NCBI GenBank assembly: GCA_008632985.1
Contig: QPGO01000121.1
Coordinates: 186,001 to 250,000 of the forward strand
Length of the DNA stretch: 64,000 nt
DNA from: Psammoneis japonica
Taxonomy: Eukaryota
Direction of reading: 5' to 3'
A program made the translations under genes and the position numbers. Positions 1,482-64,000 of this stretch are shown here, piece by piece. The first letter of the stretch is position 1; every line of letters starts with the position of its first letter. The notes beneath the pieces are model-generated. The model worked only from the letters and a program-made list of their open reading frames with translations. It ran no database searches and had not been told where the DNA came from.

Positions 1482-1791
1482 GGTGTTATTGTGTTGTTTG
1501 TTTGCGATTTTTGTGTGTGGCATTGGGGGAGCGGAGGGAGCAGCGCACTACAGGCGCTTGTGCTTCCGACAGTCAGTCGATTGCGCGCGCGCGCGCTCTA
1601 TCTACGTCGTCGCGAGTCGCGAGCAATGAGCTTGAAGCTGTGATTACCGTAGTACACCTCCCCAAAAAATCGAAGAATCCAAAAACACAGGCTCAAAAAG
1701 GCCTTCGCAGAGCAAGCAATGAGGCCGCTGTGATAGTGAGCAAAAAAGCAATGAGCGACGATGAGCTTTGTATGGATACAATACAGTAAAC

Positions 1792-19895: not shown

Positions 19896-19899
19896 AGCA

Positions 19900-21740: not shown

Positions 21741-21742
21741 CA

Positions 21743-21884
21743 GGGGCGTGCCAATGTCCACAGGGGACCCAGTTCCAGACAAGAAGGACACTCCACAGCC
21801 TGATCGTTCAATTTCAGATTTTCCTTTTATGTCTGAACCTGCCTGAATGCGTTCCTCTGTTGCTCTGTCAAAGTGGAAGACCTT
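21743..21884 (-). pseudogene. Diverged duplicate of the 3' coding part of the neighbouring FG-GAP repeat gene
   Basis: ccacaggggacccagttccagacaag…gcctgatcgttcaat…tggaagacctt aligns with ~22133-22269. Confidence 0.85.
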
Positions 21885-22068
21885 TCTTTGAAAGCTTAAG
21901 TTTTTTAATGAGTGGGAAAAGAAGCGAGTTTAAATTGTAATGTGTGGTCCGTCTTGGTTGATTTTTTAGTCATAAATTTTAGGGCTTCTGTTTAGTATTG
22001 TCACAATTTCATGTGGTGCGTAGTCTGACTAAACGTTAACAACGAATGTGCCTTGGTCGTAAATGACA

Positions 22069-24596: not shown

Positions 24597-25299
24597 CCCA
24601 TCCCCACCAATTGCCTGTCTCTAGAATCAGATCACCGCAAGAAGTCGTACGAGCAAAGCGACACCAGTCGCTGGCATGCAAGTCGCAGAGTGCGCTGTGA
24701 CTCCTCTTGGCATGCATGCATCACAAGCTTGACAACTTTTGGTGTTTGTCCGCCCTTTTTCAACTGAGTGTCGTTTTGTCTGATTTCTCAAGAGTTTTTT
24801 GTTTGTTGGTTTGTGCAGAGAATGCACACCATGATGCACACATGGGATCAACAAAAACACCCTCCATCATCTTTTTTTGCTGACACAGAGGCAATCAAGC
24901 CTGACCACACAATGTTGACTTTGCCACACACGTGTTTGAAAGACACGCACAAATGTGTTCTTCTTGTTGCAGGAAGAATTGCTGCTGATGTCGCTTTCTG
25001 TCATAAAAGACTTTGGAACAGTGATGCCTTGGGACAGCAATGCTGCAAACACACAGCCATGAAAATCATGGCGATTTGGGCAGAACTGACCAACAGTCAG
25101 ATGCGCCCACATCACACCATGAGTGAAACCCCGCCAAATTAAACAAAAATGGTGCACAGAGTGTCAGTGTTGGAATCAATGCCATGACCCATTGTAACAC
25201 CACCTTTCCACCACTGTCACTCTGCCACCTCAGCTTGCTTGTCATTGCCAGCACTGCTGCAATTTTGCAAGCAAATGCTGTCCAATTCACTCTGTGCAA

Positions 25300-26210
25300 A
25301 AGTCACAATGGAAATGTCAGAAAGGGGGGAGATTGGCTCTGCTGTTGTGCAGCAAAGATCTTTTCTGAATGAGGCCACAAATTGGTTTGCAGCCTTGGCT
25401 CCAGTGCTGAAGATGTGCTGTGGACCTGACCCACTTTAGCCCATGTGTGAAAGTGCTTGCACCGACTTGACGACTTGTGATCGCTGCTTGACTTTTGATT
25501 GTGTTCCAAATGAATTGCCCATCAATGTGGAGCCATGGCATGCTTGCTGCTGGTTGTGTGACCAAGGAAATGGGAAGGAGGAGCAACAAGCAAGTGTCGT
25601 GGCATCCTGGTGTCCTGCTCCCCACCTTGTTTGGTCTTGTGGGTGCTGGGTGCTTTGTTCCCGAGTGAGGAGGACAAGCAAACAAGAACTCCAAAAGAGT
25701 GTCATCAGAGAAACATTCCAAATGATGTCAGCAGGGGCAGAGAGGCACTGCATTGAATGGCTTGCCAATCTGCCTCACCAGATGAAATGTCTGCAAAAAG
25801 AACGAGAATGTGAAGACTGCACTCATCATGTTGGGAGCTGCTGTTCTTTTGGACAATCGCCCATGATCCATGATGTGGGTGGCCCCCTTTTCTTTTTTTT
25901 GCCCTCCCACCCACCCTTGATGTGGTGGAAACTTTTCACTCATGGCAACCTCCCAGAGCAAGGAAAGATTGGCTCTGCTGCTGCACAGCAAAGATCCTTT
26001 GTGAATGAGGCCACAAACTCCCTGGTTTGCAGCCTCAGCTCCTGCGCTGAAGACATGCTGCAGGCCCTGACTTGACTTTTGATTGCTGATTTGCTTTTGA
26101 CTCTGTTCCAAATAAATTGCCTGTCAATGTGGAGTCATGACATGTTTGCAGCTGGTTGTGGGACCGAGGAGACAAGGAGGAGTTGCAAGAAGCAAGTGTT
26201 CTGGCACCCA
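25300..26210 (+). repeat. Diverged direct duplication (~25300-25610 vs ~25940-26210)
   Basis: gattggctctgctg…cagcaaagatc…tgaatgaggccacaaa…tttgcagcct at ~25331 and ~25967; many mismatches are reciprocal TG/CA. Confidence 0.85.
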
Positions 26211-26214
26211 CTCT

Positions 26215-29200: not shown

Positions 29201-29800
29201 AATGTTCTTTTGCAAAAGACCTTTTGGAGAATGCAATTGAGACAACAGATTGTCCAGATGCAACCAACATTGAAACCTTGTGTGTCAACATTGTTGGTTG
29301 ATTGTGCGTTTGCATTTTTTGACATCCGATTGGCTCTGTGTGACTGATCTGTCCTTTGCACACATCCATGGTTGTGGTGTCATTAACACACATGCAACAA
29401 TGCACAATTGCAGCTGAATGTGCACATTTGTTCTTGCTTGACAATGCATGTTGCATGGTGGATGCAGACACATGTGTCATTCTTTTTTGTCGTCATTGGC
29501 CATGCAGTGGTTGGTGTGTTTCTTAGAAGCTTTGATGGCACATGGGCATGTGGGCATGGGACAAATCTTGTCTTTCAAGTTCCGCACAGTGTGTTCCAGG
29601 GTCACATGGTTCTCATGAACATTTTGCACACAAATGTGCACAACACAATTTGTTTAAATTGTCAAACGGTCATCAAAGCTCAAACAGTCATTGTGTGTTT
29701 GGCCCAATTGCAACAAGAATGCTGACAATGATTGCACACATGACAATCTGTGTGGTGCAACTCATTTGGAGGGTCACCAAATGGTCGTTGGAGCTCAAAC
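26215..29800 (-). mobile_element. Ty3/Gypsy LTR-retrotransposon remnant (gag-PR-RT-RH-IN)
   Basis: RT: SEWAAPKFVQPKKNGRVWFLSNFHEL and EFIRTCDDNMLCLTKGDFDDHLRKL…AGLKINAKKS; IN: HPG…ETISQHLWWP…CETC, LTMIDPATGW, TPGQLVFERD; RT before IN = Gypsy order. Confidence 0.9.
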
Positions 29801-31915
29801 AGTCTTTGGATGTTTGGTGCCAGAACACTGATTGTGTTCACACAAAGTGTGTGCACTGCAATTTGTTCTGAGGGTCAAGTGGTTGTCAGACATCTAATGC
29901 TCACATGCTTGTGCTGTTTGTTGCACATTTGTCCCATGGTCAATGCAATTGTGGTCATGTGGCCAGTGTTCTTAAGATGCAGGTGTCTTCTGGCCCAATG
30001 AATGTCACTTGGAGTTCCACCCAAGAGGGCTGGAGTGCATCCAGCATTCTCCAGAAGAGATGTGTCCTCCCCAGCAGCAGAAGCATTGGCAGGGGTCAGC
30101 ATTCTCCAATGGAGCAGTGCCCCTCTCACTGTGAGAAAGGGAGGTGCTTCAGCCACAGCCACCTGGAAAAGAGCAATGGCATGGCACAGCTGGAGCTGCT
30201 GGGCTCCACAAAGAGATGGATGGGCAGAACAACCAGCCACATGGGTCATCAGTTGTTCTCCAGATGAAGTGCCCCAGTGGAAGGTGTTTTTACAGCACTC
30301 ATGGCATTTTGAAGAGCAGCCCTGGTGCAATGCAGTGCAAGTCGTGAGCTGTGATGGATGCATCAGAGGGTGCTTCAAAAGACAGTGTGATGCTTTGGAA
30401 CATGACAGCACACCCTTGTTGACTCAGTGTGAATGTCAAGTTGCATCATCACATCTGCAGAGAGACAAACAATTGTGCTCATTTGAGCTGCACCAAAGAA
30501 CTTGCATGTTGACAAGAGTCAACATTCTTTGAGTTGGGCAGTGTGAACATCAGGTGTGAAGTGAGCAGCAAAGTGTGGCTCAAATTACAAAACTGTGTCA
30601 CAGGTGAGGGAAACAAAAAGCAGCAGGCTGTGAGCACAGAATTGAACAACTCTGATGACTTGCACATTGTGCGCAGCCTTCCACCACACAATCAATTGTT
30701 TTTGGGGGGGGGATCAATTGTTTTGGGGGGGGGGGGGGGGCAGTTGCATTCCTGCCATGTTGCACCACTTTGTGCTCTGCCCAACCTCTTCCCACTCTTC
30801 AATGTCACCCAACTCATCACAATTTTTAACTTCATTTGTGCCAGTCTCTGCAGCCCAGCAGCACCACAATTTTCTGCAAGTGTGGGAGACTCCTCTGGAG
30901 CCAAACATCCAGAAATGTCACTGGCAGCAATGTGCTCATTTCATGTTTGAGGCACATGAAGCTGGTTGTCAAAGCAACCCAAACTTGTCCTGGATCATTT
31001 TCTTTGCAAGTTTGCAGCTCCAAACATCAGTGCAAGTTCACACAAAAATCTCTTTGAATGATCCTGCAGCTCTGCCCTCCAAGCTGTCAATTTTTGCTCT
31101 CTCACCCACAGGGCGCTCCTTTTTTGAATCTCTGATGTCATTTTTCTGTTTCACCAATGTGTTTTCTACACACTTTTCTGGCCAGGCAAGCTTTGAAAAA
31201 AATCTGGCAGCACTTTGCATGCTCCCTCATGCTTTGTTCTTCCTGACCAACACAATTAGAAACTGCACTGCAGCAAAATAATCAGAAAGAAACGCTGGCA
31301 TGCTGACAAGCACAGTGGCAGAACAGCCTGTTGGATGCTTCCAGCTGCAGGCAATGTTGCTTTCAGATCCCCTGGGGGATGGCAAACCTTGAGCATCTGT
31401 TGCCTGCAGCTGGACGATGGTTTTTGATGTGCTGCAAAGAAAATTCCTTCCAATGCTGTCGGAGACAATTCTCGCGATGTTGTTGCATCTGAGAAAGGAA
31501 ATCAGAGATGTCAGAAATTAACGACAAAAGTTTTACAGATTTCTTTTTCAAGATTTCCCTTCTCACGAAATTTCCGCATGCGCACTCTCTAGAGAGGGGT
31601 ACTCCCTACTCTACCTACTCCTCGGATCTTTCAGGTGCAAGGATCACCTCCGCTCATCGCGTGGCCTATGGTCAGTTACTCTCTCAGACATTCATTCATT
31701 CGAGAGAGGGACAAGTAGCCCGTTTACAAGAGAGTGAGAGAGCTATCGTAAACAAAATAGTTTTCAAAGCAGTACCTAAACTACACCCCAAACACATAAT
31801 TTGCAAGTCTTCGAGGAATACATTTATAGTATGTTGTATAACCCCAGCGTTGAACTGTACAACTCATTTCTGCTGTCCAAAGATCTGGCTTCATTCAATA
31901 ACACCAGCACTATGC

Positions 31916-34900
31916 CTAGTTGCCTGCAAGAAGCGTCCTACCAACGCGCTGCAGATCCTGGATAGGGGATGATACACGAGAAAAGTGAGGACGTGAAAAG
32001 AAGAAGCGAAGAGCATATGCCTATCGACAGTGACCACGTACTGTTAAACCAGCGCCTCCAAAGCTATATAACGTTCTTGTTTTCGGCGCCATTTCTTCGG
32101 GAGAAGTAGACCATTCATCGACATGAATCTTTACGTTACCTTCCTCCACCGGAGCATGGCCGCTTTGGTCGAGAGAGCTCTCGCTGGAGGGGGACGCAAC
32201 GTCTCGGCGGGCGGCGTTCACGGTTACGCCAATCATTGATTCATTGTCAGAGGACACAGATTCCTTGGCGGCAGCGTTAAGGGGAGCGCCATTCTGAAAC
32301 TCTGTCGTCGTCTGCGGTGACGCTGCTTCTTTCATGGAATTGCTATGCAACAAGAAATCCTTCATCTTTGGAATGACCACCTTGTTGTAGAGATCGATAA
32401 CGTTTCCATGTTTCTTCTTACCGGGTTGCTCCGGTGCGTCCATGGGAAGAATCCGAACTTGCCTGACTAATTTCTGGCATTCGCGTTCTCCAATTTCTTC
32501 CTTTCGGATAGTTGTGTATGCCCCAATGATCTTGACAAAGGTCAGTTTGGCCTTTAGCCTCGTAACCCTGGTGACTCCGTAGATAGTGCATAGGATCAAT
32601 TGGTCAACGTGGTGGTCGTAAAGGAGCTCGATATTGTGCCTGAGAAGGTGACGGAACGCCACCCAAATTTGAGATGCAACAGGAAGGGGTACTTCTAATT
32701 TTTCGCAAAGGGCCGAAATGCGAGAATGGGACATTCTAAGGATCTTGCGAAGGATGTAATCCACGAAACGATACTCAGGGTGTTCCGCAGTCTCCTTGTC
32801 CATTGTTCTACATGAGACGAGGTTTGCTTTGCCGGCCTCCACGAGTTCTGCCCGTAACGTGGGCAACAAGATTTCCGTTGGCCAAAGGGGCTGCTGACCT
32901 GCCACCTTTAAATTGTGCTCTTGGAGTTCCTCGATCGTGTCCATAATACTGTCACCCGCGGCATTGAGATGGCATTCGTGAGACCATAAAATTGAGTCCG
33001 TGATATTAACCTCGTATTGCAGCAGATGTTGTTGAAGAAGGTGGGGCAACACACCGATCGGTGACACCCGTTCGTTTGAACTAGGCGGGTCGGACCTGAG
33101 AATGCGCAAGAACGTCTCGCTCACTTTTAAATAAGCGTACGGCGTGCATTCCATCAACTGGAGGGTAGACTTCAGATTATGCATCTGGTAGTCTTCGCCG
33201 AGCAATTGCTTGCTGCAGAAACCGACTGCCTTGAGGACACAAGCGTAGCTGCACGCCAAAAGAGCCCTGTGGAACGACTCGTTTTGTATTAACCGGGGAT
33301 GCGCCGCCGATTTTAAGCGGGCGGTCTCCTGAAATAAGAGAATATCAAGTACGTGAAAATACAACGATATAATGGCCTTGCATATCTTCCTGTCTGGGTA
33401 CATTCCATCGTCGCCACCAGTGGCAAGTTCCTTAAAGATCACTTCGCCACTGCCTTGGGAGATTGCAATACTCGAACCGGCGCCGTTGTAGCCTTGTAGT
33501 TTGTCAACGACGCGATACAGAACAGCGAAAATAACCGACCGCCACCCTCCAGAAAAGGATTCGGGTACGTCCCTCAAGATATTCTTCATTTTCCAGCTTG
33601 ACAACTCGTCGTCACTGGCATCGAGGTACATTAATAGTCGAGGGCTTGGCTTGATTTTCGTAACCATAAGGATTGAGAGAGTCCATTCGTTGAGCTCCAA
33701 TGCGTCTGTCCTCAAATTCTTCCGCCAGTCTGACGACCTCAACGAAGAGACAAGTTCCGATATGTCCTGCGATTCCGAAGAGACAGTGATAACCGAAGGC
33801 GAAGACGCTCTTCCAGACACACTAGGCCTGTATCCGTTAGTGACAGCTAAGGCATTATTGTCGGGGGCGGCATTCGGCGATTTGGGCGAAGAAGCAATAG
33901 TACACAAGCGTTGAATCATCAACGCCGGATTGGACGGCGAGATGGCAAATTCGTCAACATACGGAACCCACTTGATCACACTCTTCGCCACATTTTGTTC
34001 AGTGCCGCTAGTGCCCGTATTTGCAACTGATGTACTCAGTGCGCCAATCAATTCCATGTTTGCCTTCACAAACATTTCGTCGATCTTTGCCACCGGAAAC
34101 TGTTCGTTTGACAGAGCAAGTCTCAATCGATCGTGAAAGCTCGTCGCGGGCTCCTTTGTTTCTTGTGAGGCAGGTGTAGAAGCATCTTGCGTCGCAATCG
34201 CCATAATTTCCCTTTCAAGTTCGTCCTTTGAGAATAATGGGCCATCCAGGACACCCTGCGCGACCAGCCAATTGTACAACGAATTTGAGACAGAAACGAC
34301 CGAAGCTAGAACATCCACTCGTCCCACTGAATGGCTCGGCGACCCTTGCGAACTTCTGGAAGATGATGTGTCACTGCTCATCATTGTCAAGGCGGCAATC
34401 GCCTCGTCTTCAATGGAAAGGCGACTACGCTTCGCGGCGCGCTTCTCGGAGTCGGGGCTGACTTCCTTGGCTGCCGGTATCTTGGGCGGCAAGCCGTGTT
34501 CTCCTCTGTTCGGCTCTTTTCCTTCAGAGCCACCCGACGTACTTACCAGCGGCGTGTTGACAGTGTTCGTTGGAGTAGCTACTCCTCTCTTGTATTCGAC
34601 TTGACCCGGAGAAAGAACCAGCAGCAGCCCCATGCTAGCTGCGCTTGTTAGGATACGCTTTCTCCGCTTTGCCTTTTCCACGGAGGCCTCGTCCTGGTCT
34701 GCCTCAGAAGTGAGTTCGTCAAGCAAAAGCAAACGGTGCTGTTGCAGAGTAAGAACGCAAGACAGCTTCCATGCGTTTTCCTTGAGGACTTGGCGATTGG
34801 GAGATACATCCTGTCTGTCGTGTCGCTTCCTCTTGGCCTTCCTTACCATACCACAATACGCTTTCCATATAAAGTCAAAGTCGGACAGAGACTCGACTAC

Positions 34901-41125: not shown

Positions 41126-41570
41126 AAGTGGGGTATAATGCATTTTTCGCGGCTATGAAGTAGTTTGCGCTCTGTAATTTCTAGACAAAAACGAGAATTC
41201 GACTTTGCAGCTTTTTTTTTCTCTGCATGCGCAAGTAACCTTACATACGAACCGTGTTGTCAGGATTACTAGAGAGAAGCACAGGTGCAACTCTGACAGC
41301 CACATTCCTACATTCCATTTGAGAGGTTCATTAGGCGAACCAAATAATATCAAACCTTAGTACAGAAGGCACACTCTACTGTAGAGAGCTGGTGCACAGA
41401 AACAAGGCACTAGAGGACAGCCAAAAGATTGTCCTTCATCAGTGGCCCCCAATCCTGTACAGGAACTCCTGCTTTCTCTAGTCCTCGGATTCATTTTCGA
41501 TAAAAGCTATAAAGAATAATGATTTGGGCTGCACTAGAGATAATCCTTGTCTGGGCAAGACGCGTGGTCC

Positions 41571-42250
41571 TCCTGCCGGTGTCGCTGGATCACACCGAGT
41601 TTCGCAATGTTCTGGCAACTGCCGTTGCAACTGTAGAAAAGGATCAATTGTGTCTTCTGTATTTCCTAGAAGTAGTGACGCAATACAGACCATTTACCTC
41701 CTGCCGGTGTCTGTCTGGAAGTCACCGAGTTTCGCAACGTTCTAGGAACTGCCAGAAAGGACCAATTGTCGCTTCTGCAGTTCCTGCTAAAGATGTGACG
41801 CAATGCAGATCATTACCTTCCCTACTGCCGGAGTCTCGTTGGAAGACACCGAGTTTCACAACCTTCTAGTTACTCCAGTCGCAACTCCAGTAGCAATTGT
41901 GACTATTCTTTAGTTCCTAGAAGTAGTGACGCAATGCATGCCATTACCTTCCCTCCTGCCGGTATCTGGCTGGCAGACACCGAGTTTCGCAACATTCTAG
42001 TAGCTACAGTCGCAACTCTAGAAAGGAGCAATTGTGGCTTATGTAGCTCCTCGAAACAGAGACGCCATAAGGTCCTGCAGACCATAAGCTTCCCTCCTGT
42101 CGTCGCGTACGTCGCGCCGGTGTCTGGCTGGAAGACACCGACTTTCACAACGTAACGTTCTAGTTGCTCACTTCGCAACTCTAGAAAAGTGGAAATTGCG
42201 GCTTCTGTAGTTCCGGAAGCAGTGACGCAATACAGACAATTACCAACCCA
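41571..42250 (+). repeat. Diverged tandem repeat, ~5 units of 124-158 bp
   Basis: gccggtgtc…caccgagtttcgcaac…caattgt…gtgacgcaat recurs from ~41572, 41700, 41825, 41956, 42116. Confidence 0.85.
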
Positions 42251-42456
42251 CTACCGTAGAGGCCTAGCTAGACAATTTTCGAAAACCAATGACAATACTA
42301 TCCTACATAAAAATGAGAGCTATCCTTCCCCTCAAAGACACATTACTATCACTAGTATGTGCGCAGAAACCACTTACTTTACAGCCAGCAGTTAATCCTC
42401 CGCCACTCTCTAGCTCCGCCAATGCTCTCTACCGCTACCTCCATCAAGCGCCGGAA

Positions 42457-51291: not shown

Positions 51292-52245
51292 ATGACGCAC
51301 GCAACAGCCGCAAGAGCGGCTTCCCTGCTTGCTCGTAGAGCTGGGCGAAGTGCTGCCTTGTCCTCGGCACGCTTTTCGGTGGCAAAATCGACGGCTATAA
51401 GGGGTATGGCAACCGTGACGGGAGGCAGCGCTCTGACAAAACTTGCCGAAGCTCACCCTCACATGGAAATGATCCGATACGAACACAAGAATGACAAGTG
51501 GACCTTCAAGCAAATTGAGTATTTTGCGGATGCATTGGCTATTGGAATCTTGGAGAATGGATTACAACCCGGTGATGTTGTCCTCTCATGGCTTCCCTCT
51601 CATTTTTCCGAGACGGTGAGACTTCTAGTGTATCAAAGTATGCTAAATTTTTCGCACGGTCAAAGATGCTCACATTTTCCCTTCACTCTTTTCTCTCAAC
51701 AGCACATTTTGCAGTTTGCTTGCTCCAAGGCAGGATTGATTCTTTATAATTTAGATCCCGCTCAGGCCATAACGGATCCTGAAGGTGCCAAGGAATCGCT
51801 CAAAAAGGCGCTCGAGGAAACAAAAGCCAACGTGTTGATTACGCAGGAAGCGGGAAACGATGTCAATTATGTTCGCTTGTGCGAGGAGATTATGCCCGAG
51901 CTCCGCATCTTTGACTTTACGGATGGTATGCCATTCATTACACCGCGATTTCCCCATCTGAGATTCCCGGTTCATACCGGCTTTGATCAGATTGACAAGT
52001 GGGGTATGCTTCCCTTCAAACACATGCTCGTGCCAAGCGGTGAGCTTGACAATCTCACGGCTGGTTTCAATCTCTCTGGTTCCACTCCTCTCATGGGACA
52101 GCTTTCTACCGGAAAAGATGGATTGCCATCCAAGGGAAAGGTGTTGACAAATGATGAAGTAGTGAAGAGTAACGTGTGGCCAATCTTTTCATCCGTGTTG
52201 AAGAAGCAGTACCAAGAAGTGGAAGGTGTTGGCGTCATCTTCTAA
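51292..52245 (+). CDS. Short AMP-binding (acyl-CoA synthetase N-domain-like) protein with mitochondrial-type presequence; intron 51616-51702
   Basis: Arg/Ala/Ser-rich presequence; WTFKQIEYFADALAIGILENGLQPGDVVLSWLP…QFACSKAG typical of the ANL N-terminus; stops at ~290 aa. Confidence 0.7.
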   Translation: MTHATAARAASLLARRAGRSAALSSARFSVAKSTAIRGMATVTGGSALTKLAEAHPHMEMIRYEHKNDKWTFKQIEYFADALAIGILENGLQPGDVVLSWLPSHFSETVRLLVYQSMLNFSHGQRCSHFPFTLFSQQHILQFACSKAGLILYNLDPAQAITDPEGAKESLKKALEETKANVLITQEAGNDVNYVRLCEEIMPELRIFDFTDGMPFITPRFPHLRFPVHTGFDQIDKWGMLPFKHMLVPSGELDNLTAGFNLSGSTPLMGQLSTGKDGLPSKGKVLTNDEVVKSNVWPIFSSVLKKQYQEVEGVGVIF

Positions 52246-54838
52246 AATTAGCAGGCATAACTGTCTCGTACTGCAGCAAAATTACATATCTTTGGCATGC
52301 GCCTTGTAAAGATAGTCTGTTAGACTACACTGATTCAGCATGTTCAAAATGAACTGAGTCGTAATCCTTGTTCACTGTTCGTATTTTTTCATTCTAATGA
52401 ATGTTGGAGGTCGGGCAATTTTCTGAGAGAGGCGAGATGACAGCATCGTGCGTACCGTACGATGTACAGCACTACTCTCTAGCTAGTAGAGAGTGCTGTG
52501 TGTATATGTTTTTTACGTCGTAATGTTTGCCGTCGACAAAAGCTATGAACTTCCCGCCTGCCACTGGCACTTGCAACTGCTCGGTTCCTTCGACGGAGCC
52601 GTCAAGAAGACAGACAAAAAGAGTAGCATGAACGACAATCTGAAAGCTTCACGCATGGCATGGATCCCGCACAGAACAAAATCATTGGCTCTGATGACCT
52701 TCCTGTTCCTGACAGCGTGGGCAGAGTGTTTGTGTCTCATCCAATCACCTTTTTGGCACTCCACACTGCAACACATGGCCGCATGACATTTGCTGCACTG
52801 CAGTTTTTTTTTTCAAGTTCCTTCTGACAGTGATCACACTCCAGATGCTCCTCCTTGCCAGCCTGCAGCATTGAGAATTAAATGTCTTTGAGTTGGATGG
52901 CCTGATCCAGCAGATTGTTGGCATGGTTGTGGTCAAAGAAGAGCTCCCAAGCCAGCTTGCAAGCCACAAAGAAAAGCTTCTTCAGGTGTGCTGGTCCATG
53001 CAGCAAAGCATGGTTGGAACATCTGGATTGCGGGAAACACAAAGAACCAGATGTGTTGAAGAAAAGACACTTTGGCTCCAGGCTTGGCTCACTGCCACAT
53101 CAACCCCTGACCAACATGCACACAAGAGCAGTTGCAAAGATGGCCGCAGCACAAGGCATCAAAGATTTTGCATTTGAGGGCAAATGTGGAGACAACCTGC
53201 ACAATGCTGATCAGACTGCAGAAGTGGAAAGCAACAACGATGAAGAAAATGAACTCAGAAGATGATGACCATGAAGACAAAAAGTGGCCTCTGATGAAAA
53301 GTGTGAAGAAGCAAATGAGATCCCAGCCAATGAAAGATCCAGCCCTGATCAACAGTGCCAGAGCAACAAAATTAAGAACGAGGATCATGATGACTGCAAC
53401 AATGCACCAAAGAAAACAAGGAAAGTGAAGAGCCAGAAAAAGACAAGAAACCCAAGAGAACAAAAGATGGGAAGGAGAAAGACCAGTGGATGAGGCAACA
53501 GCTGTGACTGGCAGAAGAGCCAGGTGTGGCAGAGCCTTCCATGCTGTGCACATGTTCAGAAACACAAGAGCACATTCTGAAAGAAGAAAGTTCAATTCAC
53601 AGCAGTGGCAGACACCACAAAAGTGAAGCACAAGCAAAACAGACTTGAAAGCTGTTGCCATTCACAATGAATGTGAGCCCCAATTCAGAGGATGACATCA
53701 AGCATGATGCAGAAACAGCAATTGTCAGCCAACTCCAATCCAGAAAGGGCACTTCCTTTGACCAGCAGCATTTGTTGCATGAAGACCTAAAAGTGTTTGG
53801 CCAGAGGGGGTTGTGACACCTCAGAGAAGGAGATGAAACAACTCTGCAACAGGGTGTGCTTTGCACTGATGTCAGTTGAATGCACAACTCCAACTGAGAG
53901 GACTGTCAAGGCTGTGATTGCATTGACATTCTCAACAAAGAAGCAAGATGGTCGCATGAAAGGGTGAATGGTTTGCGATGGAAAACCAGCTGCAGAATGG
54001 CCAGACAAGGATGATTCAGCCAGCCTGATGGCCAATGACAGCCATTGTCGACACTGTGGAAAAGTGTGATGTGATGAACGAGGATGGACCAAATGCACTC
54101 ATTCCCAGACATCAACCCCAGAGTCCACCAAGGAGGGTGAAGACCAGAAAATGGTGAAAGTTGCAGGAGTGTTGTTCAACATGCTGGTGAGCATTGATCT
54201 CAACCCATGCAAACCACACGTGGTTGCAGAACAGGAGAAGAGAGTCCTCTGTGTCCAAGTCATCAGAGCCACACATGGCATGTTGGTCACAGCTCCACAG
54301 CAGTGCAAGCCATTTTGCAAGGACCCAGAGAAACTTGGGTTCAACCCTTCAATCCATGCATTGCCAATTGAGTGGTCAGCAGTGGCAAGCAGCACGCTGC
54401 ACATTTCCATCATGTGGATGACCCACTGTCAAGCCACACGAACCCCCAAAAGCAAAAAATGACAAATTCTCAAGCTGGCTTGACAAGATGTGCAGAAGCC
54501 CTGGCACAAAGTTGTTGTGACATGAGGAAAGAAGCACAACTGCCTTGGAATGGTCCTGGACTTCAGCCACAAGGGCAAGGAAAAAGTCAACATGACTGAC
54601 TGCATTCTCACAAGATTGTCAGTCAGCTCCCCAAAAGAGATCAAGAGTGCGGATGCTGCCATGATGCCAGCTGGAGAGAACCTGTTTGATGCCAGTGGCA
54701 CGAGATTGCCAACCAACAAAGCAAGGATGTTCTGTGCATGGGTGGCCAAGGGACCATTCGTGTCCAAGAGAGGCTGCACGGGTGTGCACCCTGCCATTGC
54801 AGCATTGTGCACACAAGTCAGAGAGCTGACCAACAAGG

Positions 54839-55023
54839 TGACAGAACACCAAAGGGGAATGAGGACAGCGGTGTGACAGACTCCCCAAGCAATGTGACTG
54901 CAACAACATGAGCACTGGCAGAAAGAAGTGAGAGGCAGATCTCAGAGAGATCTGCTCGTCCATCTGAATGGTCTGGTCATCATCCATGCACAGTCTGTCC
55001 ATCACAGGACAGACAGGCTGACA
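54839..55023 (-). repeat. 3' LTR of Copia B (185 bp)
   Basis: tgacagaa…ggctgaca; adjacent to PPT; aligns to 59015-59175 with a 24-bp indel. Confidence 0.92.
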
Positions 55024-58000
55024 CCCTCCCCTGATCTGCAATGTCCAAAAGCAGAGAAGACAGTGCAGATCAACCCAAAGAACAGGGATGATGCAAACAG
55101 TGAGACCAAAGGACACAATGAGTGTCCAAGCCCAACACGCAACAAACGAGTGGGCAACACGCAGCAGGAAGGCTGCCGCAAAAAAAATGTCAATGGTGGT
55201 GTCCCATCATGTGTCAAGCATGGCGAGCATTGAGTGCCCATCCCAGAGCCTTGGTGAGGTCATTGCTGGGATTGATGATGCCAGGGACATGCGCGCAACA
55301 ATCTTGCTCGCTTCCTTCCATTCTTGGATTGTGAAGAACTGGGTGTCATGTGATGCAAGCACTTGGTGGGAGTGGAATGGTTGATGATCTTGATTGCCAA
55401 TTCATTGTCAATGCACAAAGGGGTTGGCTTCATTTTGGGAGAAACCCAATTCATGGAGAACATGGCAAAGACAAAGGACATGTTTGGCAGCAGTGCCAGC
55501 AGCACAGAATTCCACTCCTGCAGAACTTGCAGTGGTCACCGATTGAGTCTTGCACCAGAAGGAAATGGCGGCACCTGCCAACATGCAAGCACAACCCACC
55601 ATGGATTGATGGTTGCAAAGGTCATTGCCATGTGCAGCATCCAGGAAAGCAATGAGTTGATGGTCACACTCAGGGATGGGAAATGATGGAAGAGTTGGGT
55701 CAGCAGTCAATCGTTCATGTGGACAGGCGGGTGGACTGGAGTCATGCTTGCAGTTCAGTTCCCAATGCTCGGTTTGCCAAAGACACTTGCAAACACCCTT
55801 CGATGCATCACAATCACTTCAGCAGGACAGGTGGAAAACTTGGACAAGGCAGTGACAGCATGCCCAATGTCCAATCGGCACACAACATGTGCGTGCAACA
55901 ATTCACCAAGGAAGGTGCGGCATCCAAAACCAGCAGCCTCTTCAAGCTCCACATGCTCTGGTGCACCCTCAGCTGGGCTGACAGCAGTGTGCAATTCACA
56001 GATGGAATCAACAGGGATCAGAGCAGCCTTCAAGTCATCAGCAAGTTCCTCAGCAGTCGGTTTCACCCAACCATGCCAGAGGCACACCTGCTCAATGTAA
56101 CTGTGGACAGCAATGCCAAGAGAGTCATCACACTGGTGCATGTCCACACCATTGAACTCTTCAATCAGCCCAAGACACTTGAGTGGCAGAGTGGTTTCCG
56201 ATGAAAGTTGGAGGGTCTTGCCAATCTTGTCACAGATGCGTCTTGACCACACAGGACTCTTCAGGACATGCAATCAAGAAATCATTGACCTGCTGACAAA
56301 GCAACAAAATCTTGTGTCCTTCAAACACAGCAGAGCAGATGCACTTGTCATGCACATCATTGCAAAACAATGGGGTGACATCCAACAAAATGCTGTTGAC
56401 ATGGTTCTCCCAGAGCACGCCGGCTTTTGGGTGTTCTTGGAGGGCATGTTGCATCGGCAACACCGTGCTTCTATCCAGTTCAATGCCAAACCGGGGCTTG
56501 CACCACATTGTGTGCGCTTCATCTGTGGCAACACAGATGGGAAGGGATGGCTGGGGACAGTGCACACAGGCATCACGGGCATCACCTTCAAACACTGGAC
56601 AGCTCACAGCAGCCGTCAAAGCAAAGAACATCCGTTGGACAGGTTGCTCAACACAAGATGAGTGCGTTGAATGTGGATGGTGGAGAACAGATGCTGTGTG
56701 TGGAGAGCCATCACAACATTGATGAGAACGTCATGTGCCATCATGCTTGAGGTCATGTTGCCAATGTGGACAAAGTGCAACAGTGTCCTTGGGGGGCTTG
56801 ATTGGGGCACCAAACGCACCCAGTTCATGGAACTGATCCAATTGCTTGAACTCACCCACATGCCATTCAGGCCATGTGTGGATGGCTTCTTGAGACAATG
56901 GTGGGTGAAGGCGCCCAATGCATGGATTGTTGTTCAAGACAGGACACTCATGAAACAAGTGTCTCTCAGAACAAACAACACACAACTTCTTGGGTGCCTC
57001 CTGTGGAGCAGTCTTCAGCTTGCAGATGGGGAAGCTGAGCAGACATGATGAAAGATGATCTTCATCTGCAGATGGCAGATCCATGCCAGCCAATTTGTCA
57101 CAAAAGACATCAAAGGTGCCATCCTCTGGATTGTCTGCATCAGTGTGTGTCTGATTGGAATCATCTTCAACAGGAGGAACATCTGGAACAGCCAAGGCAT
57201 TGACATCAATGGCTGCACGATGGGTGTCCTCCTGATTGCGGTCCCATTTACAACATGAGTTGCGAGGATTTGCATGAGTGGTGACCGAAGGACCATCAGG
57301 TTGACAAAGAAAGTCAGACAGTGTCTCAACAATCTGAGCATCCATGTGCTTCTTGAGCACAGCCGGAGACTTCTGTTCATCACGTGTGGCGTGGGGGATG
57401 AGAACTTGGAGCATTTGGTGTTCTTGATGAAGACAGGCATCTCACATGGGTCATCCAATGTGGCGCCCATGTCAAAGACACAAGCACACAACTGCAGGAA
57501 ATCTTTGAACACGATGTGACAGTCAGTCAATGACAGGTTGCCTTGAGTGGGACAGGAGTCCACTGAACCAGCAGCTTCATTGTCAAAAGCTGGGTTGTTC
57601 TTGTGTGGGATCTGCTTGAGGGCCTTGCATCCATTGCCACAGCATGAGGCAACAATGCAGTGACACTTGCTGTTCTTGGGGAACATGCCCGCCTTGGACA
57701 GAATCTTGTGAAGAGAACTCTGAGCTTCCTTGCAGTGAACATGCGTGCGTTGAGGCAGGTTGTCATCCTTGTCATTGCCAATCGTGAAACCTTCTCACCA
57801 CCACAATCCTTGGCGAAGCACCACACAGGGTGGATGCAGTGCCCAGAATCAAAAGAGTGACTTTGGAAATTTTGATGCCATGCCCATGTCCCAGCAGGAG
57901 AGTTGTCATGACATGCTGGAGATTCCCTGAACAACATCTTCTGATCGGGAGTTGAGCTCATGATAAAGAGTGTGTCATCATTGAGAATCACACGCTCTGA

Positions 58001-58610
58001 GGCATCAATGTGGTGACAGCATTCATGGTCACAATGGACCAGCGAACTCTTCAGGGTGACTTCTCTGCATTCCTTGTGATCACATTGTCGCAAACCTCCT
58101 TGGGCAGAGTGTTGGGATTGAAGAGATGTTTTGATGTTGTGGATGATGTGGTGCCTCCTGATGTCTTGCCAGCAGCAGTTGAAGGCGGAGCATTGTTCAA
58201 TCCAAACTTGTTGAGTGGTGCCACTAAATCATTCACACCAACAGCTGCAGATCCTGCACTGGTCGAGGATGAGGGTGCAGGGGTTGTCTTTGGCTTGTGT
58301 GGGGTTAAAAAAAACTCACTCCAATCCCTGCAATTCCATTGCATGTCAGGATCAACATGGACATGCTGCATCAACATGACAATGTACAAAGATTGTCCAT
58401 GATTCTGAAGAGTAATTTTGATCATGGAAGAGAGAGCTTCAGGAGTCAAGCGGATTGTGTGGAGCTTGTCAGGGTCAACAACTCAAAGAGGTGCTTGATC
58501 CACAATTGTTTTGGCAGACTGCATGTTGGCAGGGTCTGTCATGCCAGGTGGGATTGCTTGATTGACAAGACAATCATGAAACAAGTCCACAATGTTCTTC
58601 TTAGGTTGAG

Positions 58611-58688
58611 CATGCTTGGGGTCTTCAAAGAATGGATCCAGATCAAACATGCTTGGGGTCTTCAAAGAATGGATCCAGATCAAACATG
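58611..58688 (+). repeat. Perfect 37-bp tandem duplication inside Copia B gag region
   Basis: catgcttggggtcttcaaagaatggatccagatcaaa at 58611 and 58648. Confidence 0.95.
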
Positions 58689-59014
58689 GAGTTCATGCAA
58701 AGCATGATCAGGGGCATGTGGAGATGTGGCATTGAGACATGTGGTTGGAACTCACAACAGATCTCTGCAACAGATGCAGAAGCGGCCTTTGCAAGGTTGG
58801 GAGATGCCATGGTTTTACCTGGTGAAAACATTTTTGGTCATGCACACGCAGAAGAAATCTGGCATGTTTCTATGAGCATGAAAAATGCCGGGAAAGTGAG
58901 AAAAAAATTGTTTCAGGAACAGAAGATGAGGCTTGGTTGATTGGCTCACAAAGCAAATGAATTAAAACAGAAAGCATGGTGCAGAGTTCAGTGGCACAGA
59001 GTGAGGCTCCAACC

Positions 59015-59175
59015 TGACAGAATGCCAAAGGGGGACAAGGATGGTGGTGTGACAGACTCCCCAAGCACTGGGACTGTGATGACATGAGAGCTGGCAGAAA
59101 GAACTGCTCGTCCATCCAAATGGTCTGGTCATCATCCATGTGCAGTCTGTCCATCACAGGACAGACAGGCTGACA
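59015..59175 (-). repeat. 5' LTR of Copia B (161 bp)
   Basis: tgacagaa…ggctgaca followed by TSD caagg. Confidence 0.92.
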
Positions 59176-60312
59176 CAAGGATTGGGGAAAGCTGGCCCAC
59201 TGCATCAAGCACCTGAGTGGGACATGAAATGAAGTCGCTCCACTGAGCACAAAGAACCTCCAAGCAATCACATGGCATGTGGGTGCACCATTTGTGATGC
59301 ACCTTGATTTTTTAAGAGCCACACAGGCAGAACTGTGATGGCAGGCAATGGAGCAGTGTGGGCTGTGTAAAAATGACAGAAGCTCAATGCCCAAAGCAGC
59401 ACAGAGGCTGAGCTTGCAGGAGTTGACATCCCAATGACCATGATTCTGTGGACAAAGTTGTTCATGGAGCACCAGGGGTGCCTGATTGACAAGAACATCA
59501 TCCTTTCCCAGGATGACCAAAGCACCATGCTGTTGGAAACAAATGGGCACAGGAGTGCTGGAAAGCAGTCCAGAGCACTTGGCATTTGGCACTTCTTTGT
59601 TGCCAGCCAGACTGAGAAGGGCAATCTCAGAGTGCAGTGTTGTCCAACCAACGACATGCAGACTTGATGACCAAGCCATTGCAGTGCAAGAAGTCATGAA
59701 AGTTCAAATGAGCCATCTCATGGGCTGTCAACTTCAAGCATGACAGGAGTGTTTCCTGTTTGTGACATCCTCAGAGGAGAGCTCAGAAGATGTCAAGAAC
59801 CACGTGGTTCAACCAGCCACAATTTGTTCCGGCAATGTTTTGTCATTCTTCAGAACAACCATCACCCATCAAGAATGAGACAGACAAGAATGAGAACAAC
59901 ATGCTGCACAACATGACAGCGCAGTGGTCAAGACCACTGGGGTGAGTTTGCAAGACTGGCAAGCATGACAAATGAGAGAAAACAAGAAATCCAAGATGAG
60001 GAGATCTGTGTGATGCAAGATGAATTGAGCTGATGGCTCACTGGTGGAAAGAGACAGTTGACTGTTGACCCACACCTCCATTGCAATGTTTTGGATGTGC
60101 GCCAGCAGTTGATTCTGTGTGCTGATGCCCCATGTGTGCACTGGGCGCTGAAAAAAAGATGTGTTACGACTTTGTCGTTGTGAAAATTATGAGCTAGTTT
60201 AGAGTAGAGAAAATGGGATCGTGCGAATAGGGAATCTTGCCAAATCCCTATTCGTTCGCATTTGGATCGTATCAAATCGATCGTGCGTTCGCATTATGGA
60301 TCGTGCGAATCA

Positions 60313-61106
60313 GACCCGTCGCAGTCGTGACGAAGGGGTGTAATTCGGGGTGTAATTTTGGGGTGTTTACACCCCTAAAAAAAAATTACAGCCAACAATT
60401 ACCCGTCTTGAGGCATGTAATTTTTGCCTGTAATTTTTGGTAAGTGCCTGTAATTTTTCGTACGAAAACAGACTCATCATCGTCCATGACGGCAACAAAC
60501 ATCAGAATGTCGAACAACAATGGCAACCAACAATCAACGACGAACTTCAACCAGCAAGAGATGCAAGAACTCGTTGATGGGGAACTATTTTGATATATTT
60601 ATGAAAGAAATAACGGCGAAAAACGATGAGATTGCCATCAACGGACAACAAAATGAATGCAAGTTCATGCCATTTCAGAAGAAAAACGCGTCATGTGGTC
60701 GCTGAAACCTTGGCTATGGATACAATAGTAACATATGATGTTAATCACGTTATTGTAAATGTACTAGACTTGTCAGAACAATGATTTGATATGCGTAAGG
60801 TCGCAGCGGAGCCGCCGAACGCCATGGTGTTTTGATGCTGTCAATAGAATGTTCAGTTTCGCGTACAAATAAGTTAATTAAAATTAGAGATATAGAGTTA
60901 TTCCTGCTTTGTTATCAACAATTTTTGAGGAGTATATATTCAATGAATATATCATTCCTCGCAGAATTACAGACATCTAATTTCACACTCTCGCAGTCGT
61001 GAGAAAATCGGGTGTAATTTTGGGGTGTAAATTCGCGCGATGCGCGTTTTTACACCCCCAAATTACACCCAGAATTACACCCCAATTTCCACGACTGCGA
61101 CGGGTC
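60313..61106. mobile_element. Non-autonomous TIR DNA transposon (MITE; PIF/Harbinger-like by 3-bp TSD)
   Basis: Left end gacccgtcgcagtcgtg, right end cacgactgcgacgggtc (17-bp perfect inverted match, ~55 bp imperfect with ggggtgtaatt subrepeats); TCA on both flanks (60310-60312, 61107-61109); no transposase ORF. Confidence 0.85.
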
Positions 61107-61109
61107 TCA

Positions 61110-64000
61110 AGCCATCACGCGCCATGCACGAGTGATGTCATCGTGTGGAATCACGCTACCATCGTGGGCCAGACGACGGGCTAGTGTGCTTCACACGGAT
61201 GCTCTCTCAGCATCCTTCTGGAATTGCCTGAGACCTGGAGCCACGCCCTCCTGTGGTCGTGCTTCCCAGGTGTGTGTTGACAACACTGCGTTGCCACGCA
61301 CAAGAGGCTCATGCACGGTCTCACCGTGTTGTCCAGTGGCGAGGCACACTGCACACTCCCCCATGATCAGGGCCGTTGAGTGACAGAATGTCTCACTGGT
61401 GATGGGGTGCAATCTGCCGTAGATCACACGTGTCTGTCAGCGCTCCGTTCTGGACACGCAACGTGCCGTTGTCACACACACGGACAACTCTGGCGGGTCC
61501 TGCATGGCTGTCAGAACCGCACTTGGAGGATTGTTCCTGTTTGATGAGTGCCAATTGCCCCATGGCATGTTGATGCTCCTTGCGTTTCTGATTTTCACGC
61601 TTGTTGTTTAAGTGGACAAGCTTCTGCTTTCTGGTTTCTGTGTGCTTCCACTTGGCACGATGAGCAATGGACAAAACCGCATCGCGTCCGAAGACCAATT
61701 GCGCTGGACTTGCACGCGTGGTCGCATGTGCCGCAGCTCCAACAGCGAAGGCTGCTGCGGAGAGGATGCCACTCCATGGGTCATCTTCATCCAGTTCCAT
61801 GTCCTGCACTGAAAAGGAACGCACCATGTCACCAAGTGTCTGGCGCACACGTTCCACCATGGCATTTGCCTGTGGACTCCGTTTGCTTGTGGGTTTCTTC
61901 AAAATCCCACAGTCATTTTTAATCATCGGCTGAATTCTGCCATAAATTCTGTCCCACGGTCATAAACTGCCTGGGTTGGCCACGGATGTCTGCATGGCCA
62001 CGTTTGTTCCACGACGTTTGCTGCGACGTCTGCGCGTTTCGCAGACACTTCTTTAATCTTGAACCACCCGGTTGCTGGGTCAATCATTGTGACTGCCCAC
62101 AATTGCAAGGTGTCCTTTCCGCGTCTTTGAATTTTACATGGCCCTGTCACATCTGTGCATGGAGTCTCCCATGGAATTATCTCTGCGACCTTTTCTGGCA
62201 ACTTCCCATGATGCTGCGTTCGGCGTTTTGTCTTCTGGCATCGATCGCACTTGGCGCACGTAGAATGCACCGTAGACCTCACACTGGGCCAACAGAAGTG
62301 CTGGGCAATGGATGTTTCCGCACGTGTCTCACCTGGATGACACAGTGTCTCGTGGCACCATTCAGTCAGCGGAACCTGTGGTGCTGCGATTTTGTCCTTG
62401 TGACAGATTAACTGTCGTGATGACCCTCCCCCATGATGCGCACGAATGGAGCAGTCAGACGAGTCCTTGGCTCTTGAGAGCAGGCGCTTGTCCTTTTGTT
62501 GTGCTTTTTGAATGCGCTTGAAGGTGCTGAATGAGCCTGCCACCGCGGTCCAGTTTGTCTCAGCCGTTGAATGGCTTCGCAGACGTTTGCAGCATCGACT
62601 GTCAAGCAGAGCACTGCTGGCGCCACCATCTGGCAGTGCCTCAATGGTTTGAGTCTTGCCCTTGCCATGTTTGGCATTCACAGCTGCAAACAAGATTGGA
62701 GTGAGATGAGTCTTTTTAACTCGTTTGCGGGATTGGCCTGCAACACGTGTACGATGGTAATCCAGTTGTTCATTTGTACATTCATCTGATGTGCCAAAAC
62801 TGCCTGTGTCGTGTCGGCCCCCTTCTCAGGCGTCCGAATCTTCGGAATCACTTGAGTTGAGGTCGCGGAAGTGATTGAGCTCCTCCTCGCGGGCCTTGCG
62901 CTTTTTCTGAGCGTTGGCAAAGAACTCCTTGACCTTCGATCCGACAAGAGCATCAATGTCTTCCTCATTCCGAGGTTTTGCATCAGGCTTGCCGCCTCTG
63001 TCATTGGAATGTCCAGTCTTGACACGTTTCACGTGGTGCTTGAGCTGACGGCAATCCTCCGTATGATGTCCACAGTTGATCCTGCGCAGCATGCACGACT
63101 TCTGGGTGTTCCGTTGGGTCGTGATCAACGACTCAGGATTGTCCGTTCTACGTCCCCGCTTACATGGAACCTTGGCATGTTGGTCCTGGTTGCCTTCGGC
63201 AAGCTCGACCTGCTCGATGCGCTCGCAGAACTGCACAAATTCGGCGACAGTGTGCGCCAACGGGTCAAAATTCTGTAGCGTCATGAACTTCTGCCATGCG
63301 TTCGGCACACCGCACTCGAACATGTCGCACAGTTCGTCATTGGGCAATGGTGCCGGTGTTTCTCCATCCTCCGTCACGGGTGGAAACTGAGAGATGTGGC
63401 CGTTAATTTCAACAGCCCTCGCGACGTAGTCACGAGCAGAAACCTCTGCGGGCTTGCGCATGAAGCGCCGCAGATGACGCTTCTGCAACAGTGCCGCCCT
63501 GTGTGGGAAGATACTTTCCTTTAGCTTCGCGATGCATGCTGCGCACGTGGCGTTGGTTTGGCATGCCTGCTTGTCAGCGGCATTGTCAAATGACGTCAGA
63601 GCATCGCCCTGTGGCAGGTCATGCACAAGGGCAAATTTTGCTGGCCCGGTCGTGATGTTTTGTCCTTCATGCGCGCGATCCACGTTGTGCAGAAAGATTG
63701 GGAGTGTCTCGCATGTAGCCGCAGAAAGGTGCGGGATGCCCATCTCGTGCGTTGGACTGTCCGGATCAGCGGGGTTGTCACGCAGCTTGAACGTCTGGCA
63801 CTCGCCCTGCTGCAGCTCTTTCTTCTCTGGCCGTGCGAACGGAATCGGCGGCTCAACCCGCTTCTTCATGGTCATTTTAAGACTGTTCGGTCCTGCCAAC
63901 ATTTCGTAGTTTCGTTTCTGTAGATTTCGTCACCTCGCACAACATGCGGGAGCAATGTCACTGTGCCCTGCGCATGCACCAGGCGCTGAAAAAGAAGATG
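61110..64000 (-). mobile_element. Ty3/Gypsy element C, internally deleted (gag, PR stub fused to IN; RT/RH missing), runs off window
   Basis: gag 62826-63902 (QKRHLRRFMRKP, FCERIE); PR ALPDGGASS; IN HETLCHPG…CDRCQK, VTMIDPATGWF, YDRGTEF, PQANAMVER; PPT-like ATGGGGGAG (minus) at ~61356-61364 before probable 3' LTR. Confidence 0.92.

Follow-up and report, generated by a model that had tools for sequence, protein, structure and literature searches.

The stretch of DNA analyzed here, referred to as the window, comprises 64,000 nucleotides of the diatom Psammoneis japonica (GenBank assembly GCA_008632985.1, contig QPGO01000121.1, positions 186,001 to 250,000 of the forward strand). It was assigned to nuclear diatom DNA on the basis of the relatives of its cyclin B gene, the best matches of which (60-78% identical, none above 78%) are diatom proteins, e.g. 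of Seminavis, Cylindrotheca, Pseudo-nitzschia and Fragilaria. Surrounded by long, intron-poor genes lies a block at 52630-60165 (B4) that is nearly free of the dinucleotide TA (TpA) and poor in CG (CpG), and that is composed of sequences derived from transposable elements (TE); three further blocks (B1 to B3) share this composition. An initial annotation of the window had proposed that TpA is converted to TpG or CpA by a repeat-targeted hypermutation in these regions, a “reverse” form of the fungal repeat-induced point mutation (RIP). The features concerned are listed below by their position in the window (o/e: ratio of observed to expected dinucleotide counts; RT: reverse transcriptase).

5781 to 9850: depleted block B1 (TA o/e 0.03, CG o/e 0.18).
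8165 to 9004: tandem array of four copies of a 209-bp unit (96% matches), inside B1.
19590 to 21900: depleted block B2 (TA o/e 0.06, CG o/e 0.17).
24650 to 31500: depleted block B3 (TA o/e 0.05, CG o/e 0.14).
About 26246 to 28818, minus strand: degraded Ty3/gypsy-like pol in B3, identified by Pfam and tblastn.
31672 to 31953: undepleted sister copy of the left end of B2, with 21 TA, outside any block.
52630 to 60165: block B4, composite and TE-derived, nearly TA-free, CG-poor.
54839 to 55024: multi-copy repeat segment of 186 bp, copy 1 (bin read depth 4365 versus about 58 for single-copy DNA).
55196 to 56889, minus strand: Ty1/copia-like (CoDi-like) RT and RNase H remnant with frameshifts, TGA stops and almost no Tyr.
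59015 to 59176: multi-copy repeat segment, copy 2 (bin read depth 1372).
59314 to 59655, plus strand: second copia-like RNase H/C-terminal fragment, opposite in orientation to the first, containing the peptide VQCCPT.
60152 to 60309 and 61108 to 61400: very high-copy repeat around the following insert (bin depths 32,575 and 50,693).
60310 to 61107: element of about 798 bp resembling a miniature inverted-repeat transposable element (MITE), with terminal inverted repeats at 60312-60366 and 61107-61052 (88% identity).
61400 to 64000, minus strand: element G, gypsy-like and internally deleted, with a gag-like open reading frame (ORF) and the N-terminal end of pol, followed by the RNase H end and integrase.

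The four blocks sum up to 20,768 bp (32% of the window) and are characterized by o/e values of 0.03-0.06 for TA, 0.14-0.20 for CG, 1.77-1.91 for TG and 1.78-2.00 for CA, compared with 0.60, 0.97, 1.13 and 1.12, respectively, in host DNA (the other 39.4 kb of the window). Summed over these four pyrimidine-purine dinucleotides, the o/e values reach 3.85-4.03 in the blocks against 3.82 in host DNA, the near-equality that a conversion of TA and CG to TG and CA predicts; the G+C content of the blocks (0.46-0.49) is close to that of host DNA (0.485). B4 contains 17 TA where 484 are predicted by base composition, and 87 CG instead of 445, next to 818 TG (o/e 1.91) and 926 CA (o/e 1.84). The loss of CG, on which the initial annotation laid no stress, is as strong as that of TA. 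Between 53 and 60 kb, each 1-kb window holds 0-8 TA (o/e 0.00-0.11) at a CG o/e of 0.10-0.27, and the seven consecutive windows from 53001 to 60000 (mean TG/CA o/e 1.83-1.93) pass the cut-offs given in a preprint on Bigelowiella natans (Mettrop et al., bioRxiv 10.64898/2026.01.13.699255; see below). The longest run without TA extends from 53788 to 56098 (2310 bp; chance about 10^-41 at the host density of 0.0399 TA per bp), in agreement with the stretch of 53790-56097 that had been judged TA-free by eye; likewise, the three further blocks, the normal TA content of the neighboring DNA and the sharp boundaries described in the initial annotation were all recovered. The edges are indeed confined to 50-100 bp next to host genes. 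At the left edges near 19590, 24650 and 52630, the TA edge is located 100-300 bp outside the CG edge, as if the two losses arose from processes with different footprints. Strand-coordinated patches were not detected: none of the blocks shows overdispersion of the TG/CA ratio at a bin size of 150 bp, and the runs tests were unremarkable.

The copia-like frame of B4 (57183..55180, minus strand) obtained 1028 matches at E ≤ 1e-3 in a phmmer search of the whole library (best 1.9e-88), and tblastn placed residues 848-1414 of a relative, P0274 (1422 amino acids covering gag, protease, integrase, RT and RNase H), at 56889-55196 in the order RT, RNase H. Its 668 codons comprise 18 TGA, 50 His and 53 Cys codons and not a single Tyr codon. 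The fragment at 59314-59655 was recognized by plus-strand tblastn alignments in which copia-like pol proteins matched with their C-terminal portions (best E 6.8e-6). The six-frame read-through of the entire 7.5-kb block matched 0 Pfam families even at E ≤ 1. Neither integrase nor gag nor convincing long terminal repeats (LTR) were found in B4; the block is therefore regarded as a composite of fragments. An assignment of the 186-bp repeat pair as LTRs was dropped, as no integrase or gag lies between the copies and the segment is multi-copy. In B3, the gypsy-like pol was matched by Integrase_H2C2 (E 4.7e-6) and by RVT_1 (E 4.2e-4, short of its cut-off). The remainder of B3 and B4 and the whole of B1 and B2 were compared by tblastn with 139 copia-like and 120 gypsy-like proteins, without a match at E ≤ 1e-3. 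The term “transposon blocks” of the initial annotation is thus verified for the region at 24.7-31.5 kb, through its gypsy-like pol, and for that at 52.6-60.2 kb, through its pair of copia-like fragments; the regions at 5.8-9.85 and 19.6-21.9 kb, which match no TE protein, may be transposon-derived as well.

The proteins encoded by these remnants permit the lost TA to be traced at individual codons. Columns were scored if at least 60% agreement existed among at least 15 normal relatives. In the copia-like frame, none of nine conserved Tyr columns is kept (five Cys as TGY, three His as CAY, one Phe), and only one of seven conserved Arg columns is retained, the other six now reading TGN or CAN; other residues persist (Trp 7/7, Gln 7/7, Pro 12/13, Asp 9/10). 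The gypsy-like pol of B3 has kept 0 of 24 conserved Tyr (nine His, eight Cys) and 11 of 36 conserved Arg (nine AGR, two CGN), with 17 of the Arg columns changed to His, Cys, Trp, Gln or stop. For comparison, the host genes contain 2.7% Tyr, 2.2% His and 1.3% Cys. When the Tyr codons of the copia-like frame and of the ORFs of element G were pooled, 17/19 were found changed, nine from TA to TG and eight from TA to CA, versus the same transitions at 4/146 control positions (A or T outside TpA at the same codon positions; Fisher p = 1.6e-17). An excess in TA context over other A/T transitions, which the initial annotation had named as one of the tests of its proposal, is therefore present, and its reading of Tyr as His or Cys in retroelement proteins is statistically confirmed on conserved columns. 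Taken over B3, B4 and G, the outcomes are 19 His (CAY) and 19 Cys (TGY); therefore both strands were hit, as had been claimed, and editing of sense RNA alone cannot explain the pattern. The quoted peptides fared differently: in HVLCLCH the reading holds, a Tyr and an Arg of the consensus iAkYLRS both having become Cys, whereas the His of DAAHGND is native to the family (consensus DAAHAtD). The TA deficit is mutational, not compositional.

DNA copies within the window were compared directly. The undepleted sequence at 31672-31953 recurs, in mutated form, as the left end of B2 (19538-19813): at 17 of 19 aligned TA sites of the former, the depleted copy reads CA (11) or TG (6), and at A/T positions outside TpA the transitions A to G or T to C are found at 14/116. 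The two copies of the 186-bp repeat in B4 (54839-55024 and 59015-59176) share 142 identical columns and differ by 24 gap columns and 13 substitution events, namely seven CA/TG doublets, three single transitions and three transversions; a doublet of this kind requires an ancestral TA or CG with one outcome in the first copy and the opposite one in the second. About 14 events distinguish the 209-bp tandem units of B1, including one TG/CA doublet, one TA/TG difference and two differences of CG versus TG or CA. Since tandem units are necessarily made in place, their differences favor an action on chromosomal DNA. Between the window and sequencing reads, 17 differences were listed inside B4: seven CG versus TG or CA, two TA (window) versus CA, three CA/TG doublets, two other transitions and three transversions. 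Taken together, copy, tandem and read differences support, and do not prove, a mutation of chromosomal DNA after insertion.

The neighboring bases have a clear influence on the survival of TA. The 60 residual TA sites of the four blocks comprise 21 TTAA, 35 with T on the 5' side or A on the 3' side, and only four with neither (VTAB). Relative to host density, survival amounts to 0.8% for VTAB, 12.5% for TTAB or VTAA and 68% for TTAA; among host TA sites the share of VTAB is 62.5%, as opposed to 4/60 among the residual ones (Fisher p = 5e-19), and the baseline is alike in 72 undepleted metagenome relatives (63% VTAB; see below). With both strands pooled, TAA survives at 23% and TAC, TAG and TAT at 2-5%. 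A strict rule, according to which TAA is refractory on the edited strand, was tried and rejected: T-preceded Tyr codons went both ways (four His, three Cys), so that the flanks appear to slow the reaction rather than to block one strand; in the copy pair 31672-31953/19538-19813, three of four sites with a 3' A went the way predicted by that rule. Partly depleted metagenome loci show little enrichment of TTAA in their residual TA, and the context rule is supported in this window only.

The losses of TA and CG can be separated. Element G matches pol residues 2-90 and then 699-1076 (about 90-698 missing) and has open reading frames at o/e values of 0.20 for TA, 0.89 for CG, 1.46 for TG and 1.58 for CA; against 120 relatives, 0/10 Tyr are kept (four Cys, five His, one Ala) and 15/17 Arg, 11 of them as CGN. 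The reverse case is found in the database relative P0147 (Arg 0.3%, Trp 3.2%, Tyr normal), which by its composition appears to represent CpG decay without TA loss. The two losses are thus separable both ways, and in the window the loss of TA comes first or runs faster than that of CpG. The latter is evident from the CG o/e of 0.14-0.20 in the blocks and from the change of Arg CGN to TGN or CAN in 6/7 columns of B4; the TGA stops of the old blocks would fit a change of CGA to TGA. Changes at TA remove TAA and TAG stops and create none; the elements therefore die by missense while their frames stay open. According to its residual TA, element G indicates that the process does not act constantly everywhere; it could be a copy at an intermediate stage, or belong to a non-autonomous family that was hit first and multiplied later.

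The same features were encountered in relatives from other organisms. Normal relatives of the copia-like pol contain 2.5-5% Tyr at a TA o/e of 0.5-0.9. Among the 150 best relatives of the copia-like frame, 139 have at least 1.5% Tyr; 11 fall below, seven of these without any Tyr. The Tyr-poor relatives carry His or Cys at the Tyr positions of the family, and the ten that were looked up are short contigs of ENA, JGI or Logan. Two metagenome proteins, P0229 and P0274 (91% identical), differ at 9/13 aligned Tyr (eight Cys, one His); judged from these sequences, the pair gives the impression of a young copy in which the outcome is strongly one-stranded, in contrast to the even balance of the old copies in the window. 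A scan of metagenome contigs with P0274 gave 80 loci, 72 of which have a TA o/e of at least 0.5; the copia-like family is thus not intrinsically TA-poor. The depleted share (about 8/80) is a lower bound, as three of the six search peptides contain Tyr. The depleted loci L058, L072/L073, L057, L067 and L069 (TA o/e 0.2-0.37) exhibit His or Cys at most Tyr positions with Arg largely kept; in L058 (1-5500), 35 Tyr positions now hold two Tyr, eight His and 14 Cys, and Arg is kept at 31/58. By these signs, the TpA signature appears to occur also in environmental organisms.

Multi-copy sequences of the window include both depleted (186-bp repeat) and undepleted ones. The MITE-like insert (TA o/e 0.71, CG o/e 1.30) sits between TA-poor sequences; its bin depths of 776-1315 correspond to about 13-23 times single-copy depth, and read contigs that join 60309 to 61107 represent the empty site. 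The high-copy repeat interrupted by it has roughly 550-870 times single-copy depth, and the first 158 bp of the window copy contain nine TA versus 14 expected. All five listed high-depth variants of this repeat are TA versus CA or TG, and in four of the five most other copies have CA or TG where the window has TA. The attribute “repeat-targeted” of the initial annotation is consequently not supported in its simple form, given the undepleted MITE-like insert and the copy of the high-copy repeat. The choice of the sequences hit could depend on age, episodic activity, chromatin state or guide RNAs; the undepleted MITE-like insert and the part-depleted element G are compatible with episodic action, and also with differences in age or targeting.

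The signature is present in accurate reads. The DNA-type read run X1 contains 80% of the words sampled from 51.5-61.4 kb; its word-based contigs, of a mean depth of about 58 and a length of up to 315 kb, are more than 99% identical to the block at 52630-60165, with flanks of normal TA content. The quality of these contigs argues against a basecalling artefact from modified DNA. The confirmation in reads asked for by the initial annotation was therefore obtained as far as the TA-free block is reproduced, and is qualified by the fact that the platform of X1 is not on record and that the run, which shares its sample with two other listed runs, is possibly the assembly's own data.

A contig of a further run, X2, jumps 87 bp with GT..AG ends at 51614-51702 in the AMP-binding-domain gene that adjoins the block; X2 is probably RNA-derived, and the gene accordingly would have an intron at this position. 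X2 has no cover inside 52630-60165, and no run recorded as RNA was listed among those containing the sequence, which carries no weight for or against expression. Two AAA_16/STAND-type ATPase genes (1765-4257, plus strand; 14123-15313, minus strand), one with C-terminal EF-hands, share this 64-kb stretch that is one third transposon remnants. Host DNA of normal TA content includes tandem repeats at 41569-42259 whose units, of about 125 bp, have diverged to 67-75% identity. A deaminase or TET/JBP gene was found nowhere within the window, in line with the initial statement that the responsible enzyme is not visible there.

Old TE insertions that were hit by a TpA-specific hypermutation, together with a separate decay of CpG, probably provide the best explanation of the observations as a whole. 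According to this model, the blocks would be old insertions, i.e. copia-like and gypsy-like retrotransposon remnants plus other repeats. After duplication or insertion, a context-specific process would have acted on TpA of either strand, turning A:T into G:C and so TpA into TpG or CpA, and would have run on until almost no TpA remained; it would be most efficient at VTAB, hardly touch TTAA and spare host genes only tens of bases away. A second, slower and separable process, the decay of presumably methylated CpG, would feed into the same two dinucleotides. The loss of TA would kill by missense (Tyr codons to Cys or His), whereas TAA and TAG stops would vanish and frames open. We infer that the TpA process is a targeted defence. 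With the rest granted, enzymatic deamination of adenine at TpA is a reasonable candidate for the chemistry, put forward tentatively.

Several points weigh against this model. Two of the four blocks (B1 and B2) are without a TE protein match, and the targeting is not simply of “repeats”, as the MITE-like insert and the copy of the high-copy repeat are undepleted. Outside TpA, the copy pair 31672-31953/19538-19813 differs by 12 changes of A to G or T to C versus five of G to A or C to T. A simple strand-specific rule was not borne out (four His, three Cys), and of the 27 TA that element G retains, 13 lie in the context of highest sensitivity. The independence of the X1 reads from the assembly is limited. 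Finally, all events would have to be deduced from end states, as no de novo event was observed.

Among the alternatives, a modification of thymine is the most probable, although it is regarded as unlikely. It assumes the same TpA targeting; the TpA thymine would be enzymatically modified, e.g. by TET/JBP-type oxidation to 5-hydroxymethyluracil (5hmU) or 5-formyluracil, and would miscode as C at replication, leading to T to C on either strand. Sequence cannot separate A to G from T to C on the opposite strand, and the outcomes are symmetric (19 His, 19 Cys); moreover, modified thymine in TpA context exists in kinetoplastid telomeres (base J) and in dinoflagellates (5hmU). On the other hand, 5hmU paired with A is only weakly miscoding, and no TET/JBP gene is present within the window. 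The authors of the B. natans study favor adenine deamination, likewise without proof (10.64898/2026.01.13.699255).

An editing of the elements before integration is quite improbable. In this case, retroelement RNA or cDNA would be hyper-edited by an ADAR- or APOBEC-like activity and the mutated, dead copies then inserted, which would account for the coincidence of the depletion edges with the insert ends, for the fact that the identified elements are retroelements and the DNA-transposon-like MITE is spared, and for the strongly one-stranded P0229/P0274 pair (eight Tyr to Cys versus one Tyr to His). Sense-RNA editing, however, yields A to G only, whereas both strands are equally affected within single ORFs; the one-strand signature expected of ADAR/APOBEC-type editing is absent from the 19:19 ratio of His to Cys and from the TG/CA ratios, which are not overdispersed locally. 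In B. natans, it is already integrated DNA that acquires the mutations while the cells are cultured (10.64898/2026.01.13.699255). Furthermore, a TG/CA doublet and a TA/TG site separate the 209-bp tandem units, which were made in place; differences of the types TA/CA and CA/TG also exist between window and reads at one and the same locus, and B1 and B2 carry the signature without similarity to retroelements.

A sequencing or assembly artefact, in which modified bases of heterochromatin are miscalled and the real DNA retains TA and CG, is very improbable and largely refuted: long-read basecallers do err at modified motifs, and X1, with its unrecorded platform, may be the assembly's own data, but at more than 99% identity its contigs, which reach 315 kb at a depth of about 58, agree with the block and have flanks of normal TA, the encoded proteins show coherent changes of Tyr to His or Cys and of Arg to Cys, Trp, His or Gln, and related Tyr-free proteins and loci come from independent metagenome assemblies. 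An intrinsic composition or selection, i.e. element families that are naturally TA-poor or in which TA is selected against, has hardly any probability left and is refuted for the saturated blocks: open frames at a TA o/e of 0.20 in element G would agree with it, and an adaptive avoidance of TA in active families (fewer targets) is conceivable, but a functional retroelement would keep its conserved Tyr (kept at 0/19 in the copia-like frame and G, and at 0/24 in the gypsy-like pol), relatives have 2.5-5% Tyr at a TA o/e of 0.5-0.9, and an undepleted sister copy (31672-31953) exists in the window itself.

With TpA-specific hypermutation as the preferred explanation, the phenomenon is extended to a second major lineage of marine phytoplankton, and the tetranucleotide context rule provides a property that any candidate enzyme must reproduce. 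Diatoms are an experimentally tractable group, several of which can be transformed and edited, and the comparison of genomes with and without the signature offers a route to the responsible gene, which could be a natural DNA adenine editor. If an adenine deaminase does act on DNA, it would be the natural equivalent of the laboratory adenine base editors and would add a new branch to the genome defences of eukaryotes. For genome annotation, it is of relevance that such elements escape Pfam (0 matches in 7.5 kb) and create long spurious ORFs.

Targeted hypermutation as a means of genome defence is established in fungi (RIP) and animals (APOBEC, ADAR). The closest parallel is the chlorarachniophyte Bigelowiella natans, for which the preprint by Mettrop et al. 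(10.64898/2026.01.13.699255) reports mutation-accumulation lines in which 231 of 302 nuclear mutations fell into two integrated viral regions; 230 of these 231 were A to G or T to C, all 230 on TpA. Only some lines were affected, at a de novo rate of about 1000 times background; clusters depleted in TpA and enriched in CpA and TpG occur genome-wide, their coding sequences being enriched in RT and DDE domains, and ADAT2 is named as a candidate (10.64898/2026.01.13.699255). The uniqueness implied by the initial annotation thus does not apply, as the same signature has been shown experimentally in that alga. Both cases share the change of A to G or T to C at TpA to give TpG and CpA, the confinement to foreign DNA beside normal host sequence, and the TpA depletion with CpA and TpG enrichment in clusters of 1-kb windows; an episodic rather than constitutive action may be common to both. 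They differ in the host (a rhizarian there, a stramenopile here), in the identified targets, which are LTR retrotransposon remnants in the diatom, and in the degree of saturation (TA o/e 0.03-0.06 versus 0.45 for the insert of a nucleocytoplasmic large DNA virus in B. natans); in addition, the diatom shows a strong CpG loss alongside and a visible sparing of TTAA, and is known from end states as opposed to real-time data. The full-text literature search yielded no report of TpA-specific hypermutation in diatoms. A more speculative, though possible, extension would be that diatoms and chlorarachniophytes share, by descent within SAR (stramenopiles, alveolates and Rhizaria) or by convergence, a dedicated DNA-level A:T to G:C mutator against invading DNA that edits adenine, or a miscoding thymine, at V-T-A-B, faster than and independently of cytosine methylation.

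Like RIP of ascomycetes, the process affects only inserted or repeated DNA, causes transitions in a dinucleotide-specific manner, has sharp edges and permanently kills transposons. In contrast, RIP consists of C to T changes mostly at CpA, creates TpA and stops and lowers the G+C content, whereas the diatom process destroys TpA, raises G+C where it mutates and produces no new stops through its TA changes; “reverse RIP” is thus acceptable as a description of the direction and of nothing beyond it. PMC9998398 describes diatom DNMT4 enzymes, related to RID, as being without known function, and TE methylation in Phaeodactylum tricornutum as dependent on DNMT5a; by analogy, the CpG decay observed here presumably results from methylation as in other diatoms (PMC9998398). 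The decay of 5-methylcytosine at CpG accounts for the half of the pattern that leads from CG to TG or CA, and it cannot remove TA. The animal APOBEC3 and ADAR families resemble the present case as a deaminase-type, context-dependent hypermutation against retroelements, and ADAR favors a 5' U before the edited A; their substrates are single-stranded cDNA or RNA and their signature is confined to one strand, unlike the equal involvement of both strands and the chromosomal DNA indicated here. No natural enzyme of the TadA/ADAT2 family is known to mutate the chromosomal DNA of algae; deaminases of this type, including the engineered adenine base editors, deaminate A after U or T (U33-A34 of tRNA), which fits TpA. 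A targeted change of A:T to G:C at TpA has so far been reported once, in the 2026 preprint on B. natans. What the diatom adds is that the process has reached saturation, that it is separable from CpG decay, that it follows a context rule and that it kills by missense.

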